From the UHGV virus genome UHGV-0102749: DNA of 18,456 nucleotides, one strand, 5' to 3'. Position numbers and translations under genes: made by a program. The DNA is from a virus. This document shows, one piece after another, positions 8,103 to 15,262 of the stretch (its first letter is position 1; the number at the start of each line of letters is the position of its first letter). The notes under the pieces are model-generated. The model was not told where the DNA came from. It saw only the letters and a list, made by a program, of their open reading frames with translations, and made no database searches.

Positions 8103-8625
8103 ACCAGAGTTGAACCATTTTCTGGGTGCCGTCAGGCTTGAGATTATCAATTTCAGAGAGAACGTAATATTGAATGGCTTCACAAACGGTGGTGTAGGGT
8201 GAATTACCTTCTTTAAGTGGCACGATATTATTATTAACGCGAACCTGTATTTCATCGTTATACATTGCGATCGAAACAGGAGTGTGCACGAACGCGACTT
8301 CGCCAGGTGTGTCGTCAACCACCGTTTCAATACTAAAAGTCAGTTTTCGCTCATCATTGCTGCCCCGTGCTTTGGGGGTAGCGGCAGGGATCTGGGATAA
8401 AGGCATTCTGCGAAATCCTTCGGCTGCTTCCAGTCCGCATGAAACGTAATGCTGGCGATTACCGTCGCTATCTGTCCAGGTCTGTGATGGCAGCTCCAGC
8501 GAGATTTCATAAGCATCAACAATGCCCTGGGCAAGGCGCACAAGCGGGGTCAGATCTTCATTGCGGCGAAAGCTCTCCTTTACCTGCTCCCGTTTTTCTC
8601 TTAACTGCTTGTAATTAATGACCAT
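8101..8625 (-). CDS. Hypothetical protein (orphan cargo gene, convergent on portal gene)
   Basis: 174 aa from ATG 8625 with SD GGAGG 7 nt upstream (MVINYKQLREKREQ…). I see no recognisable motif. GC content looks lower than the structural genes. Confidence 0.6.
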   Translation of the reverse strand: MVINYKQLREKREQVKESFRRNEDLTPLVRLAQGIVDAYEISLELPSQTWTDSDGNRQHYVSCGLEAAEGFRRMPLSQIPAATPKARGSNDERKLTFSIETVVDDTPGEVAFVHTPVSIAMYNDEIQVRVNNNIVPLKEGNSPYTTVCEAIQYYVLSEIDNLKPDGTQKMVQLW

Positions 8626-8724
8626 AAGACAGCCTCCATTGATTTCTTTGCTCGTATTTTGCACTTATGAAGTATGGTCGGCAAGGTGCCGTATCGCTGA
8701 CGCGCTTCGCTTGTCTGCTGCTTC

Positions 8725-8753
8725 GCCGGGGCATAAAAAATTTATGCCCCGGC
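8725..8753. repeat. Perfect 13-bp-stem inverted repeat GCCGGGGCATAAA-AAA-TTTATGCCCCGGC
   Basis: Read directly from the sequence; no U-tract on either side, so it is not a canonical terminator. Confidence 0.7.
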
Positions 8754-9030
8754 TCTCCAGCTCCTGTATCAATCAGATAATTTCACGACGCCTTCCAGTT
8801 TATCGCCACCATCGACGGTCAGACTCTTACGCAATTCCACCGCGTTGACTGTATGTTCTCGCTGCCTCAGTGCGATTTTGACGGCCTTACCTTTCACCCC
8901 ATCAAATCAAAAGCCCTCACGCCTTTTTCATGCTCAGCGTGAGAAATATGGCCATTCTGTTGTGTCTCTGCGACATCGTTCAGGGAATGCTATTTACCCC
9001 CTGAAACGCGGGCTGTTCCCCCGTCACCTG

Positions 9031-9054
9031 CGCGCAGAAAAAGCGCGTTTTTTT
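9031..9054 (+). terminator. Terminator-like hairpin CGCGC-AGAAAAA-GCGCG followed by T7
   Basis: GC stem plus TTTTTTT run on the plus strand, with no annotated upstream plus-strand gene; it may end a small transcript or insulate the cos region. Confidence 0.35.
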
Positions 9055-9124
9055 GTGCACGCACGGATCCCTGACGGATCCAGCCGCCACGCGGGCCAGA
9101 AGGGCAAAAATTCGTTCAAAAAAA

Positions 9125-9150
9125 TTGTGCAAATTTGTGCACTATTGTGC
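9125..9150. promoter_or_regulatory. Three direct TTGTGC repeats at exact 10-bp spacing upstream of the ATPase operon
   Basis: ATTGTGCAAATTTGTGCACTATTGTGCGC; hexamers at 9125, 9135 and 9145, about 90 bp upstream of ATG 9237. Confidence 0.4.
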
Positions 9151-9236
9151 GCTAAATCGAATCCCTGTATTGCTTACCAGCTCATTACATGTAAACTCAA
9201 CAGGTAGCAATATTTACTTCCAAAAGGTGGAACAAA

Positions 9237-10438: not shown

Positions 10439-10957
10439 ATGGCAGTTAAGAAATTTGCTATTATTCTTGTTGAGGGAGATACGGAAAAAGCATTGTTTCA
10501 GGATTTCAAAACATTGCTAGGCTATCCTATTAAGAAAATAGTAATTGCTAATTTATGGAATGTTAATATAAATAAATACATGCCAGCATTAACCGAAAAT
10601 AGCGAAATCATAGTGGTTTTTGATACGGATAGGATTGAGAATCTTGATAGATTTAAGAATAATCTCAATCTATTAAAGGCGAAAAAACACACAATCCACC
10701 TATTTCAACAAACAAGCAATTTTGAGGATGAGCTTGCCAATGCTTGTGGTGTAAGTAATAGAAAGTTGTATTCTTGTTTTTGCCCAAAGATCATCTCTGC
10801 AGATAACTTCAAGAATGAATTCATTGCGCTGCGCAACAGGATGATGAAATTAGATGGACTTGGACTAAATAAAACGTTGCTTTGGAGTAGAGGGATTATC
10901 CCCCAATTGAGAGATTATAATTTTCATGTTTCCTCTCATGATGATTATTTTTTATAA
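10439..10957 (+). CDS. Small RloB/DUF4435-like (Toprim-like) protein, partner of the ATPase
   Basis: ATG at 10439, 2 nt after the ATPase stop (the ORF-track start at 10433 is TTG); SD GAGGA. N-terminal AIILVEGDTEKALF resembles the conserved EGxxE block of RloB/OLD-type Toprim-like proteins, followed by an acidic VVFDTDR motif. AT-rich. Confidence 0.65.
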   Translation: MAVKKFAIILVEGDTEKALFQDFKTLLGYPIKKIVIANLWNVNINKYMPALTENSEIIVVFDTDRIENLDRFKNNLNLLKAKKHTIHLFQQTSNFEDELANACGVSNRKLYSCFCPKIISADNFKNEFIALRNRMMKLDGLGLNKTLLWSRGIIPQLRDYNFHVSSHDDYFL

Positions 10958-11087
10958 AAATAATAGTCCTCATTAAGATAAACATATTTTAAGACACAAG
11001 ACCGCCAGCTAGGCGGCCTTATATCTTTGACGTTCGACTCCTTATTTGTTGATTGTTTTCAGAACTGGAAACCTCCCGTGCAAAGTT

Positions 11088-11399
11088 CTAATCGGGAAAT
11101 AACGCCCGGATATTTCCGGCCATCTGACTGGTTATCTGTGCGGTGGGGGCTGTCTGTAACATGTGGCGTTCTGCCCTGGTTTGTGTCACTGATAACGCCT
11201 CATCGTCAGCCCATGCAGCCAGTCGGTAAGCCTCTGCCGGATTCATTTTCAGAAGTGCCAGCCCGGCCAGAAAAGCCACGCGTTGGCCGCTTTTGCGGGC
11301 TTCTGGTGTAAGGCTGTCCAGCCAGGCGCATGCTTCGCCTTCGTTCTTGACGGCGGCTGGCTTCAGATAGAAACTTATCCGTCTGGTTGGAGTCGTCAT
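11088..11399 (-). CDS. parR: ParR-like centromere-binding protein
   Basis: 103 aa from ATG 11399, 5 nt after the parM stop. RRISFYLKP…ACAWLDSLTPEARKSGQRVAFLAGLAL aligns with plasmid R1 ParR as I recall it (RRTIAFKLNP…DTLDSIPQGERSRLNRAALTAGLAL). The ORF-track start at 11534 overlaps parM and is rejected. Confidence 0.7.
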   Translation of the reverse strand: MTTPTRRISFYLKPAAVKNEGEACAWLDSLTPEARKSGQRVAFLAGLALLKMNPAEAYRLAAWADDEALSVTQTRAERHMLQTAPTAQITSQMAGNIRALFPD

Positions 11400-11403
11400 T
11401 GGT

Positions 11404-12363
11404 TTACTCCTTGTCCATTGCGTACAGCCCATTAACCAGAGCAAACTGTGGCACCCCGTCCGCGATGAAAGTCGCATTAACTCCGCAGGCTTCGCGGATA
11501 GCGGGTGCCACAATCTCCGCCCCTCCACCGACAACCATCACCCGCCCGTAACCCGAAAAACCCGCCAGCGCGCGGATCACGCGTTGTTTCAGTGTTTCTT
11601 CCTTTTCACGAATAACCGCCATCAGGCTGGCGTAATGCGCGTCATTGTGGATGTGCTGGCGCAGCCAGGCTTCATCATGGCGATGTTCGATAATGGTATT
11701 GGCGATGTGGTGACTGGTGCGCATACCGTTAGTGGCCATCACCGACAGTACGGCATCGGCCATCAGAGAAACGCCTACGTGTGGATCGCAAAACACCTGG
11801 CTGATACCTGCCAGTTGCCCCTGAACCTTTGCCACATCCAGCGTGGTTCCGCCCAAATCCACAATCAGCAGGGATTCAAACGGACTCATGTCAGCCAGTG
11901 CCTTAAAGCCTGCCGGAATGGATTCAGGCATAACCCGCACGTTACGGATAGTGAATGCCTCACCGTTCTGGTACTCCACCGGGCGCATGACGTTCGCTTT
12001 TTTGCGGTTGATGTTGGTCATATCCGGCTGTGCGTTTGTGTCGAAATACTCGCTCAGTGGCAGGGTGACAACCACATCCACCTCCTGTGGCGTGATGCCT
12101 GATTTGAGCAGCGCGTGATGAATGGCAATGACATTCACATCGCTGTACTGGTATTGCGTGTCGGTCGTCTGGACAAAGCGATCGCTGACCGGATCAAAAC
12201 CATAGCGCACGCCATCAAGCATGTAGTTCGCGGGCTGCGTGCCACCGAACGGCGCAGACCATTCCGACTTGAAGCTGTTCGGGCTGATGGCGTTGCGGCG
12301 TTCGCCGTTCTCAGTCCATGCCAGCTTGATGTTGGTGGAGCCGTCGTCGATACAAATTTTCAT
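11404..12363 (-). CDS. parM: ParM/StbA-family actin-like segregation ATPase
   Basis: 319 aa. MKICIDDGSTNIKLAW…SPNSFK…YQYSDVNVIAIHHALL…VMPESIPAG…LIVDLGGTTLD…VMVVGGGAE tracks R1 ParM block by block (phosphate-1 DDGSTN, connect/phosphate-2 DLGGTT, adenosine GGGAE); SD AAGGAA. Confidence 0.85.
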   Translation of the reverse strand: MKICIDDGSTNIKLAWTENGERRNAISPNSFKSEWSAPFGGTQPANYMLDGVRYGFDPVSDRFVQTTDTQYQYSDVNVIAIHHALLKSGITPQEVDVVVTLPLSEYFDTNAQPDMTNINRKKANVMRPVEYQNGEAFTIRNVRVMPESIPAGFKALADMSPFESLLIVDLGGTTLDVAKVQGQLAGISQVFCDPHVGVSLMADAVLSVMATNGMRTSHHIANTIIEHRHDEAWLRQHIHNDAHYASLMAVIREKEETLKQRVIRALAGFSGYGRVMVVGGGAEIVAPAIREACGVNATFIADGVPQFALVNGLYAMDKE

Positions 12364-12394
12364 GTCGCTTTTCCTTATGTTGATTAATTAATCG

Positions 12395-12503
12395 TTTACG
12401 GGATTCTGAAATCCCGTTTTTGCCTGTTTTGTGCGCGCTTCATATATCGCTGCGCGTTTTTTGCTCATTTACGGGATTCGTGAGTCCCGTTTCTGTCTGT
12501 TTT
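12395..12503. repeat. Two ~36-bp direct repeats, each with an internal dyad (ACGGGATT…AATCCCGT) and a T-run, straddling the A stop codon upstream of parM
   Basis: Copy 1 (12395..12430) TTTACGGGATTCTGAAATCCCGTTTTTGCCTGTTTT; copy 2 (12468..12503) TTTACGGGATTCGTGAGTCCCGTTTCTGTCTGTTTT. Candidate parC-like centromere/operator or tandem terminator-like hairpins. Confidence 0.5.
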
Positions 12504-15262
12504 TTGTTTCCACTGGTCAGGCCACCCCGCAGCAGGTCTGCTTTGCGGCGGGCGCGTTCAGTGGTTTCACTGATTCTCTGTGCGTGCTCTGCGTCGCGGA
12601 TGGCGCGCAGCATGTCAGAAAGCACGGTAACGGGTGTTTTCATGGTGTTCTGGTCCTGCTGAAGTGTGGATGCCAGGCGTGCGGCGGCTTCAGGGTCTGA
12701 TGCCCCCAGCTGTGCCAGATAGCTGGCGACCGGGTTATGGCGGATCTCCGTGCTGCTTACGCCGTGATTACGGCTCAGGCGCTGCCAGAGCTGCGTGATT
12801 CGGCTGTCCGGGCGGGTATCCGGTTTGCGTACAATTTCAAATCCCTGCGGTGAAATGATGCTGCCGTCAACGTACAGACTGCCGCCCCGTAACAGGTGCT
12901 GCATCTGCTGTTCACCAATATGCAGGCCGAGAGATTCAGCAGACTCCCGCCATTCTTTAGCGAGTAATTCGTGGTTATCAGGCAAAGGCCGCTGCTGTTT
13001 GCGGCTCTGTGTCCAGCTCTGCATTTCATCACTGCTGTTTTTTGCCTGTTTGTCACGCAGCGAACGCATCAGCGCCCGGCGTTCGTGCCGTTTCAGTGAG
13101 CGCATCCATTCATCCACATCAACGCCGTCAGGAAGCTGCGGCCACGGTGCTGGCCGTTCTTCCGGCTGTTCTGTCCCGTTGTTGTCCGTTTCCTGTACAC
13201 GGGGACAGTTATTGCCACGAGTCCAAGGGGCGGCAGGGCCGCCCTGAAGGTCAAAACCATTTTCGCGGGCGCTGTCTTCCGCTTCCGGTTTACGTCTTAT
13301 CAGCTTCCAGTTATCCGGATGTGTGCACACACGGGAAGACTCCCCGATGAGTGGTGACCAGATCCCGTAAATCTGTACGCTCTGTTCGCCGTAATCGTTC
13401 GGCTCATCTGCGAGGTCGTAGGCGGTGCGAATCAGGTAGTCTTTGCGTGGAACAAGTACGCCGCCCTGTTTTTCAATGTAGGAGGCAAAACACCCGGCAT
13501 CAGCGGCAGCGAGCACTGCATCCATTGCGTCATCCTTCAGCCGTTGCGGGCCTTCCGGGTTGCGTGCCATCTGGTTGGCAAGGCGGCGCAGTTCACGCCA
13601 CACCTGACGGGAGGGGATGCCAAAGAACTGGAACTGGCGGACCCGGTGAAGGCGCGCCCAGCCGATGGCGCGCTCCACGCTCTCGGCCATTGATTTTCCG
13701 GTTTCGTGGTCAACGCGTGGCTTGCCCGTTTTCGGGTCGATACCATCCACGGCGCGGCTGTCCAGGTTCTTTCCGATGTAGGTGGCGATGTAGCTGGTTG
13801 GCGTGCCTTTTGAGCCGTCGACATACTCCACCTTAAAGCGCGGAGTAATATCATTGCCCAGCTCGTGGCGGTCTTCCTGAATGGCAATATCGCGGGTATG
13901 GGACACAATGGTGTCGATTTCTTCCGGATGTGCAAAGACCATCATATGCCAGTGCACGGTGCCGTCATGATGAGGCTCCACCGTGCGGATGCCATACCAG
14001 CGCAGGCCGTCGCGGTTCAGTTTTTTGCGGACCGCCGCAAAAAACGTGTTAACCAGGTAATCGCTGGAGTCGCGCATTGTGGCCCCGTTCCATTTGGGAT
14101 TTGGATGACCGTTCTCCGTTGTGGCGTGGTATTTTGACGGGCAGGTGACAGTCAGAAACACCGCTTTGTCGCCACGGGCTTCGGCCAGAAGTTCCAGCCC
14201 CTTCATGGTGGCCATCATTTCTGCCTTACGGTGAACCGGGTTACTTACTCCCGCGTAATACACCGTCTCGAGATCAATCGTGAACCCGTCTTCATTTTCC
14301 AGCATGAAACTTTTCAGGAAATCGCGTGTTTTCTCGCGCTGTGCGCGAAACTCGCTTAACGCGTCCTGGCTCAGATAGGGTGATGTTTTTCTGGAAACCA
14401 GACAGGCGGCGCGGAGTTGTTCTTCCCGCCACTCGCAACGTAACAGCCACAGTTTGCGTTTCCACCATTCCGCACAGGTCAGGCGAAGGATTGCGCCCGG
14501 CAGCAGCTCCGTGTCCGGTTCGTTCCTCCGGTCTTTGTCTGTTGTCAGAGCGTCATAATGTGGAGGCATGGCGTGCAGGTGTAACGCCATGCGGGCCAGC
14601 ATCTGATACGCCTTCAGCGTTACATCCATGGTCAGCTCGCCATCGGTCGCGCCAAAGCCATCGCAGAGTTTTTCAAAAGTGCCACTGAACATCGCCGCCG
14701 TCATGGTGGCCAGCGTCTGTATCTGGTGTTTGTTGAGCTGCGGCAGGTAAAGCAAATCGTCCAGGCGTTCGCGTCCGGCAAGGGAGCGATAACCCGGTGT
14801 CAGCCAGCGGTGATCGGTGCGCTCCAGACGTTCGAATATTTTGCGCAGGGTCCCACGCGCATAGCGTTCTGCCTGCCTGGCGTTTTTTCCTTTCTGACGA
14901 TCGGCTTCCTGTTTTTTGCGCAGGAAGGAGAGGTGGCGAATAAGCGGATCGCGCAGATAGGACGGCAGCAGGCGCAGCGAGGCCATGGCTTCATCCACCG
15001 CGCCGCGTGCCTGTTTTCTGGCGTCTCCTGCCAGTGTGATGGTTTTGTCCTGTTTTTCCTGTGCGTCCAGGCTTTTATTAATCAGGTTGCCCAGCGGCGT
15101 GGCGGAGAACGCCGCATCAGCCATTTCCTGGCGGCGCTCGTTCTCTGCCCGGTAGGCATCCAGCCAGGAGGAAAGCGCGGATTCAGGAGCGGGGATCCCC
15201 GTTCCTTCACGCCCCACTGCGTGGCGCGGTTGTTGCCAGTCCCTGATGTACTCTGCCGTCAT
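12440..15262 (-). CDS. A: Rolling-circle replication initiator, P2 gpA-like (HUH endonuclease)
   Basis: 940 aa. HUH motif VHWHMMVF and paired catalytic tyrosines in SYIATYIGKNLD (YxxxY), as in P2 A. Last gene of the leftward early operon. Confidence 0.8.
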   Translation of the reverse strand: MTAEYIRDWQQPRHAVGREGTGIPAPESALSSWLDAYRAENERRQEMADAAFSATPLGNLINKSLDAQEKQDKTITLAGDARKQARGAVDEAMASLRLLPSYLRDPLIRHLSFLRKKQEADRQKGKNARQAERYARGTLRKIFERLERTDHRWLTPGYRSLAGRERLDDLLYLPQLNKHQIQTLATMTAAMFSGTFEKLCDGFGATDGELTMDVTLKAYQMLARMALHLHAMPPHYDALTTDKDRRNEPDTELLPGAILRLTCAEWWKRKLWLLRCEWREEQLRAACLVSRKTSPYLSQDALSEFRAQREKTRDFLKSFMLENEDGFTIDLETVYYAGVSNPVHRKAEMMATMKGLELLAEARGDKAVFLTVTCPSKYHATTENGHPNPKWNGATMRDSSDYLVNTFFAAVRKKLNRDGLRWYGIRTVEPHHDGTVHWHMMVFAHPEEIDTIVSHTRDIAIQEDRHELGNDITPRFKVEYVDGSKGTPTSYIATYIGKNLDSRAVDGIDPKTGKPRVDHETGKSMAESVERAIGWARLHRVRQFQFFGIPSRQVWRELRRLANQMARNPEGPQRLKDDAMDAVLAAADAGCFASYIEKQGGVLVPRKDYLIRTAYDLADEPNDYGEQSVQIYGIWSPLIGESSRVCTHPDNWKLIRRKPEAEDSARENGFDLQGGPAAPWTRGNNCPRVQETDNNGTEQPEERPAPWPQLPDGVDVDEWMRSLKRHERRALMRSLRDKQAKNSSDEMQSWTQSRKQQRPLPDNHELLAKEWRESAESLGLHIGEQQMQHLLRGGSLYVDGSIISPQGFEIVRKPDTRPDSRITQLWQRLSRNHGVSSTEIRHNPVASYLAQLGASDPEAAARLASTLQQDQNTMKTPVTVLSDMLRAIRDAEHAQRISETTERARRKADLLRGGLTSGNKKQTETGLTNPVNEQKTRSDI

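Follow-up and report, generated by a model that had tools for sequence, protein, structure and literature searches.

Two dyad-containing repeats upstream of parM as a candidate parC-like ParR site in a P88-like prophage

Introduction

The stretch of DNA analysed here, referred to as the window, comprises 18,456 bp of the virus genome UHGV-0102749 and carries two direct repeats just upstream of a parM gene. Together with the 31-bp core between them, these repeats (12392-12506, 115 bp in all) probably form a parC-like, two-block ParR site belonging to a type II (ParMRC) partition cassette, which probably also serves as the operator of the cassette. ParR binding, centromere activity and repression at this site are what we infer from comparison of sequences, and the site is most likely an unannotated, fairly ordinary member of a well-known class of elements. 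As an expected component of a known system, it is of limited surprise value.

According to passages of a survey of P2-like phages (Rousset et al. 2022, PMC9122126), a putative plasmid partitioning system occupies the gpA-gpQ interval in about a fourth of them, and the window presents the same genes at the same locus. The passages of that paper matched by a term search mention the genes, and define neither a centromere nor an operator site. As far as these passages go, the partition genes of P2-like phages are already in the literature, as "putative" genes only, and no description of the site was found.

In the mechanism proposed here, ribbon-helix-helix dimers of ParR would bind each of the two blocks, the likely contacts being an invariant GGG...CCC dyad and phased AAAAC(A/G)G tracts. 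Because the blocks are 73 bp apart, that is, about seven helical turns, the two ParR-DNA complexes would be placed on one face of the DNA, as in the U-shaped, two-block parC of plasmid R1. The ParR-DNA complex would then cap ParM filaments through the conserved C-terminal tail of ParR, and ParR bound beside the parM start would also autoregulate parMR.

Organisation of the Locus

Positions 11000-13500 of the window are 95-98% identical to Escherichia phage P88 and to other members of Xuanwuvirus (Peduoviridae, P2-like), a likeness by which the window is a P88-like prophage. The minus strand carries, in this order, gene A, parM and parR, named replication endonuclease, plasmid segregation protein ParM and partition protein in annotated records. 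None of the annotated records of the locus that were examined has a feature marked over the repeats.

Gene A (12440..15262, minus strand) encodes a P2-type replication endonuclease of 940 aa (Pfam Phage_GPA, 2.6e-130; PHROG 91, "nicking at origin of replication"), and reading of the ORF places its stop codon at 12442-12440. The parM gene (11404..12363, minus strand) encodes an actin-like segregation ATPase of 319 aa (Pfam StbA_N, 3e-82; ParM C-terminal domain, 1.3e-68), which matches the R1 ParM structure 1MWK with E=3.4e-93 and is, on the strength of this match, a close homologue of R1 ParM. The product of parR (11088..11399, minus strand) is a predicted ribbon-helix-helix, centromere-binding adaptor of 103 aa (Pfam Plasmid_stab_B, 6e-24; PHROG "partition protein", 1.7e-57) that begins with PTRRISFYLKP and ends in the tail NIRALFPD. 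A search of the PDB with the single ParR sequence gave no match, and a profile made from the window ParR and nine relatives matched pB171 ParR/StbB (2JD3) over its full length with E=1.8e-19. By these assignments the two cassette proteins are a true ParM and a true ParR, the ribbon-helix-helix fold of the latter being predicted.

Convergent with parR, in the P2 gpA-gpQ hotspot, is a two-gene AbiL-like anti-phage system (9237-10957, plus strand), formed by AbiLi (1.1e-27; AAA_15 ATPase) and a protein with a weak AbiLii / OLD-type TOPRIM nuclease match. Small ORFs at 8618-9207 (plus strand) accompany the pair, and the cargo found at this position differs in P88 and its relatives.

The Two Repeats and Their Dyads

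A repeat search defined the two copies as a direct-repeat family (D1) of 42 nt, at 12392-12433 and 12465-12506, which are 81% identical and spaced by 73 bp from start to start. A previous, sequence-only reading had described repeats of about 36 bp, about 85% identical and 73 bp apart. This description holds well, the cores at 12395-12430 and 12468-12503 differing at 6 of 36 positions (83% identity) within a true repeat length of 42 nt. That reading was also right in the position of the copies relative to gene A. The distal block (copy 2; 12465..12506, minus strand), with the sense-strand sequence CAAAAAACAGACAGAAACGGGACTCACGAATCCCGTAAATGA, falls within the last ~21 codons of A, because the A stop codon is at 12442-12440, and the proximal block (copy 1; 12392..12433, minus strand), with the sense-strand sequence CACAAAACAGGCAAAAACGGGATTTCAGAATCCCGTAAACGA, lies in the 76-bp spacer between A and parM. 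The core of 31 bp that separates them (12434..12464, minus strand) includes the stop codon of A and takes, by analogy, the position of the promoter core of R1.

Each copy contains the dyad with 8-bp arms that had been noticed earlier. The proximal dyad (12398..12417) reads ACGGGATT-TCAG-AATCCCGT, also given as ACGGGATT-CTGA-AATCCCGT, and its arms are perfect. The distal dyad (12471..12490), which reads ACGGGACT-CACG-AATCCCGT on the sense strand and is also given as ACGGGATT-CGTG-AGTCCCGT, has one G.T position in its arms. Both have the form GGG-N10-CCC, with the GGG located 52 nt (proximal) and 125 nt (distal) upstream of the parM ATG, and this motif occurs in the whole window only at the two dyads. 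Likewise, the 25-nt pattern TTTACGGGATTCNNNANTCCCGTTT, with three mismatches allowed, has only two matches, which are the repeats themselves, with 0 expected from 200 shuffles. Within each 42-nt repeat, two loosely matching 10-bp AAAAC(A/G)GG sub-repeats are accompanied by an inverted half-site, and AAAAC tracts fall at helical turns 0, 1, 3, 4, 7, 8 and 10 across the site. A tandem iteron array such as those of R1 and of plasmid relatives is absent from the window site.

A consensus scan of 10800-12800 returned no sigma-70 promoter at threshold between or beside the blocks, so that transcription of parMR may come from the early operon by read-through across A. A promoter of its own, if present, would be weak at most and would lie near a conserved TTAATCAA box, which sequence reading places at 12380..12387 on the minus strand. 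This box is flanked by the proximal dyad and by the Shine-Dalgarno sequence of parM (AAGGAAAA, 12369-12376, minus strand). It is located 4-7 nt upstream of the latter, is kept in the phages of E. coli, Hafnia and Plesiomonas and is not conserved in Serratia-type phages; it could represent either a weak -10 or a leader element.

Boundaries of the parMR Cassette

As an outcome that would refute it, the sequence-only reading had named a codon-level feature conserved by A in all relatives irrespective of parMR. The comparison went against this alternative, as A homologues without parMR have no repeats. Such homologues, with 87-89% protein identity, end in ...GNSEKKK* or similar, about 20 codons earlier than the window A, their DNA homology to the window ceases at about 12526-12548, and there is no GGG-N10-CCC dyad near their A stop codon. 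What follows A in these relatives is an S8 peptidase/AAA pair or hypothetical genes. A second type of junction is provided by locus L121 (IMGVR_UViG_2547132279_000014), a P88-like phage in which the C-terminal region of A is unrelated; its homology to the window starts at 12504, where copy 2 has its outer limit. At the parR end of the cassette, P88-like phages remain homologous as far as the stop codon of parR, and the cargo beyond it varies. Three independent junctions therefore delimit a mobile unit composed of copy 2, the core, copy 1, parM and parR. Judged by these breakpoints, the repeats are part of the parR-parM cassette and not of gene A, and copy 2 is the upstream edge of that cassette.

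Two further observations concern the history of these sequences. Both dyads of L121 (3100-3360) share the same replacement of ACGGGA by ACAGGA, a sign that the copies may evolve in concert or undergo gene conversion. In loci L013-L015, A proteins that are 82-97% identical to that of the window stand beside ParM proteins that are 97.5-99% identical, so that the parMR cassette appears to have been exchanged among A alleles.

Conservation in Distant P2-like Phages and Co-variation with ParR

ParM homologues with 54-63% identity were found in other P2-like prophages, those of Hafnia and Plesiomonas being 62-63% identical; scans of viral contigs with the ParM of these two groups added almost nothing. 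The repeat sequences of the Hafnia and Plesiomonas phages differ from those of the window, and the two-dyad skeleton is kept. Relative to the parM ATG, the GGG-N10-CCC motifs lie at -125 and -52 in the window, at -128 and -55 in the Hafnia locus L008, and at -131 and -59 in the Plesiomonas locus L011, which corresponds to dyad spacings of 73, 73 and 72 bp, respectively. The gene upstream of parM in L008 is an unrelated ORF of 167 aa, and L011 has a different direct repeat of 26 nt (GCGGGACAACAAAAACCCGAAATAGC / GCGGGACAACACTAACCCACAATGGC), 72 bp apart, with its distal copy inside the end of A. Common to these phages is a skeleton of two GGG-N10-CCC dyads that are separated by about seven helical turns, keep a fixed distance to parM and have an AAA(C/T)G tract after them; inner bases and flanks have diverged. 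Another arrangement is found in the Serratia/Enterobacter types (L012, L016, L163-165, L240 and L242), where one large inverted repeat, GGGAACGAnAnAGAAAAAT...ATTTTTCTnTTTCnTnCCC (GGGAAC...GTTCCC), uses the same AAAAACGGGA half-site, and the upstream gene is variously A, a methyltransferase or a 71-aa ORF.

The type of site thus tracks parMR and the N-terminus of ParR, irrespective of the upstream gene: ParR proteins starting with TRR(I/V)SFYL go with the two-dyad layout, and those starting with NRKISFYL go with the single large inverted repeat. Ribbon-helix-helix proteins read DNA by their N-terminal strand, and the correlation would point, to a modest degree, to co-variation of protein and site. 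The P88-like phages have two allelic types of ParR that, elsewhere than at the N-terminus, are only ~50% identical; PTRRISFYLKP is unchanged in nearly all of ~48 distinct P88-like ParR sequences, one of which reads LTRRISFYLKP. Dyad haplotypes showed no association with ParR types I and II, as is expected if the reading strand is the same in both, and the constant ParR N-terminus matches the constant dyad cores across the two allelic types. Both types also keep the C-terminal tail NI(R/Q)A(L/F)FP(E/D/K/Q/G), which aligns with the C-terminus of pB171 ParR; the corresponding tail of R1 ParR is the peptide that binds ParM (structure 4A62). The DNA homology between the two ParR types breaks ~18 codons into parR (window ~11345), and the central linker of the protein is hypervariable (loci L082-L239).

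Comparison with Known Partition Systems

The class to which membership is proposed, that of the characterised type II centromeres, consists of arrays of direct 10-20-bp iterons, and the ParR proteins characterised so far bind direct repeats upstream of parM (PMC9426499). The parC of plasmid R1 has a promoter core of 39 bp with five 11-bp iterons on either side; ParR forms two distinct complexes on this site, which is strongly curved and bends into a U (PMC2241845). The window site resembles R1 parC in being directly upstream of parM and in having two blocks separated by a short core, which is 31 bp long in the window as compared with 39 bp in R1, and the two systems have closely homologous ParM proteins and ParR proteins of the same Pfam family, Plasmid_stab_B. 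In addition, the helix-phased AAAAC tracts of the window are compatible with the intrinsic curvature of R1 parC (PMC2241845). The differences lie in the 2 x 5 tandem 11-bp iterons of R1, which extend over 159 bp with a clear promoter, whereas the window has two 42-nt dyad units over 115 bp, and in the distal block of the window being inside the coding end of the upstream gene, in a host that is an integrating P2-like prophage and not a plasmid. By analogy, the window site could be regarded as a smaller version of the R1 parC plan in which each block contains a dyad.

Two 10-bp direct repeats are sufficient for the ParR of pB171 (PMC9426499), and each window block has a comparable pair, AAAACAGGCA / AAAACGGGAT. 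The sequences of pB171 par1 and of the window are nevertheless unrelated, and the element of the window, a putative ParR site, is duplicated 73 bp apart and has inverted half-sites. Plasmid relatives of the cassette (pCAVP776_2, which is L007, together with L023 and L075) have a ParM that is ~50% identical and, as in the window, repeats that flank a core upstream of parM. These plasmids carry, however, 3-5 tandem iterons of ~11 bp per side, of the TTCTCAAAT or GAAAAATACAG type, and a TTGACA/TATAAT promoter, and the phage site shares with them neither the iteron sequence nor the promoter. The ParM proteins of the D6 phage-plasmid and of IncN-like plasmids are only 48-52% identical, and their iterons are unrelated. 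When the cassette was sought beyond P2-like phages, all matches were P88-like prophages, some of which sit in plasmid records.

The assignment to parC is favoured by the position of the site in cis, directly upstream of parM-parR, and by the presence of a cognate ParM and of a cognate member of the ParR family. What counts against it is that the diversity of the blocks is not below that of synonymous sites, that no promoter is predicted, and that there are only two large units in which the dyad is the most conserved part, as opposed to the tandem direct iterons of characterised ParRs.

Variation within P88-like Phages

Population variation was assessed in 65 distinct haplotypes from 82 P88-like loci. 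Nucleotide diversity in the two blocks was 0.036 and 0.083, with a value of 0.030 at the third codon positions of parM, and an excess of conservation of the repeats over parM third positions was accordingly not found among these haplotypes. Only the GGGA/TCC cores are near-invariant, and purifying selection is visible there only. The commonest variant of the distal dyad in the population, ACGGGATTCACAAATCCCGT, has perfect arms. A look for compensatory changes in the arms of the dyads revealed nothing but transitions in a single arm, each of which one of the two strands can accommodate as a wobble pair.

A natural deletion of 73 bp between the repeats arose at least twice, in L003 (NZ_OZ039818, 3089-3130) and in L238, which have different loop haplotypes. 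In these exact deletion alleles one hybrid dyad is left and A ends in ...NPVND* or similar; their persistence implies that one block is at least tolerated in a prophage. Despite this built-in deletion route, two copies are kept in ~73 of 75 distinct P88-like upstream haplotypes. In several haplotypes the A tail is read in another frame because A6-7 runs (12492-12510 and 12455-12462) vary in length, and in two of them poly-A slippage fuses A to a 26-aa ORF.

Alternative Explanations

The sequence-only reading had offered three interpretations of the repeats, of which the centromere and the operator are supported by the comparison with relatives, while the third, a pair of terminators, was not supported as the conserved function. 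As plus-strand intrinsic terminators, the repeats would stop antisense transcription coming from the AbiL-like operon, or arising inside parMR, before it reaches A. Their terminator-like appearance in the window is genuine: both copies pass a plus-strand terminator scan, with an 8-bp stem, a 4-nt loop and a T-rich tail; the hairpins fold with about -10 kcal/mol on either strand (-10.2 to -10.4 kcal/mol, z about -2.5), and the arm mismatch of copy 2 is a G.U wobble on the plus strand. However, the nearest plus-strand operon ends at 10957, so that its terminator would be expected before parR, and the repeats are 1.4 kb away from this point, beyond the whole of parR and parM (1.3 kb of antisense). 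The units of the Hafnia and Plesiomonas phages, which keep their positions, have GGG/CCC(G) stems of 3-4 bp, loops of 10 nt and no T-run, with z-scores on the terminator strand of -0.28, -1.42, -0.09 and -2.26. Moreover, the commonest E. coli haplotype of copy 1, GCGGGATTTAAAAATCCTGT, weakens the plus-strand hairpin through two A.C mismatches, and a search of 12000-12900 against Rfam (E<=1) gave no match to a known RNA family. The strong hairpin with its T-run is, from these comparisons, specific to the E. coli lineage, where a side role as terminator is possible. As a conserved function, plus-strand termination was rejected, being absent from the orthologous elements and misplaced with respect to the plus-strand operon, and as the explanation of the repeats it is quite unlikely. 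About as improbable is that the repeats have no function and are a scar, a duplication left when parMR recombined into the end of A and hitch-hiking since then. The region is indeed a recombination junction, the blocks are as diverse as synonymous sites, and the 73-bp deletion occurs and persists. Yet the same skeleton, with the 72-73-bp spacing and the distance to parM, is found in Hafnia and Plesiomonas, where repeat sequences and upstream genes differ, and nearly all P88-like upstream haplotypes retain both copies. Such a scar seems to us improbable.

The repeats could otherwise be sites for another protein, such as a phage regulator (Cox/Apl-, Ogr- or C-type), a host factor, or A itself, for which they would be an origin or termination site. 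Dyads with a helical phasing of 73 bp would suit many DNA-looping regulators, and the site overlaps the 3' end of A, but the element always travels with parMR and its type follows the ParR N-terminus, not A or the upstream gene. The A homologues that lack the repeats are otherwise intact, meaning that A and its origin do not need them, and on account of these relatives at 87-89% identity an origin or A-protein site was discarded; the explanation as a whole is very unlikely. Least credible is a repeat at the protein level. Copy 2, translated on the minus strand as part of A, gives KQTETGLTNPVNE, and a 26-aa ORF (12468..12388, MSKKRAAIYEARTKQAKTGFQNPVND) yields KQAKTGFQNPVND from copy 1 in the same register; the two could share a functional peptide motif. 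Both copies are in the same frame relative to the repeat and the small ORF is open in most haplotypes. Against this, its polymorphism is even over the codon positions (0.055, 0.074 and 0.081), several haplotypes have frameshifts or a stop in it, its ATG is not preceded by a Shine-Dalgarno sequence, it has no counterpart in Plesiomonas and Serratia, and the 73-bp deletion removes its start, while the A tail is itself frameshifted at the poly-A run in some haplotypes and missing from A relatives. The even diversity over codon positions, the frameshifts and the shorter A homologues therefore make the peptide likeness a by-product of the DNA repeat. The peptide repeat and the 26-aa ORF were dismissed for lack of codon-position bias, for the frameshift and stop haplotypes, for the missing Shine-Dalgarno sequence and for their absence from other lineages, and it is extremely improbable that they account for the repeats.

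Distribution and Significance

Of 5426 complete E. coli genomes, about 1300 have a stretch of 321 bp that surrounds the repeats, nearly always in the chromosome; EDL933-type O157:H7 and E2348/69 are among the carriers. This frequency agrees with the "about a fourth" of P2-like phages given in the passages of the published survey referred to above (PMC9122126). If ParR binds to the parC-like site proposed here, the missing cis element would be defined for a partition system present in about a fourth of complete E. coli genomes. A family whose sites have to date been described as tandem direct iterons would gain a two-site parC that contains dyads, and in which the distal block belongs to the 3' coding part of the gene upstream.

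Knowledge of the site would also make testable the use of an actin-like segregation machine by an integrating P2-like prophage, for which the candidate roles are maintenance of a plasmid state, segregation of replicating genomes and incompatibility against competitors. In a broader proposal, which we consider unlikely, the locus would be a complete, working segregation machine of the actin type, with a non-canonical, dyad-based two-site centromere partly within a replication gene, installed in a P2-like prophage at an anti-phage "hotspot", and its role might be other than plasmid-style inheritance. It could serve to segregate excised or replicating phage genomes, or the chromosomal parC and ParR could exert partition incompatibility towards incoming plasmids, phage-plasmids and related phages, as a form of competition or defence.

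Among the genome matches to the 321-bp stretch, 22 places are plasmid-borne. One deposited sequence, NZ_CP148288.1, is a "plasmid" of 34,461 bp that corresponds to a whole P88-like genome entered as a circular, non-mobilisable E. coli plasmid. It may represent an extrachromosomal state of the phage, or the assembly of excised or replicating DNA, and it bears on whether ParMR maintains a plasmid form. Finally, a contig labelled Vagococcus sp. WN89Y (L014, NZ_JBQPOM010000071.1) carries an enterobacterial prophage region with a ParM that is 98% identical, and this occurrence on a Firmicute-labelled contig is probably due to contamination or to mislabelling of the assembly.
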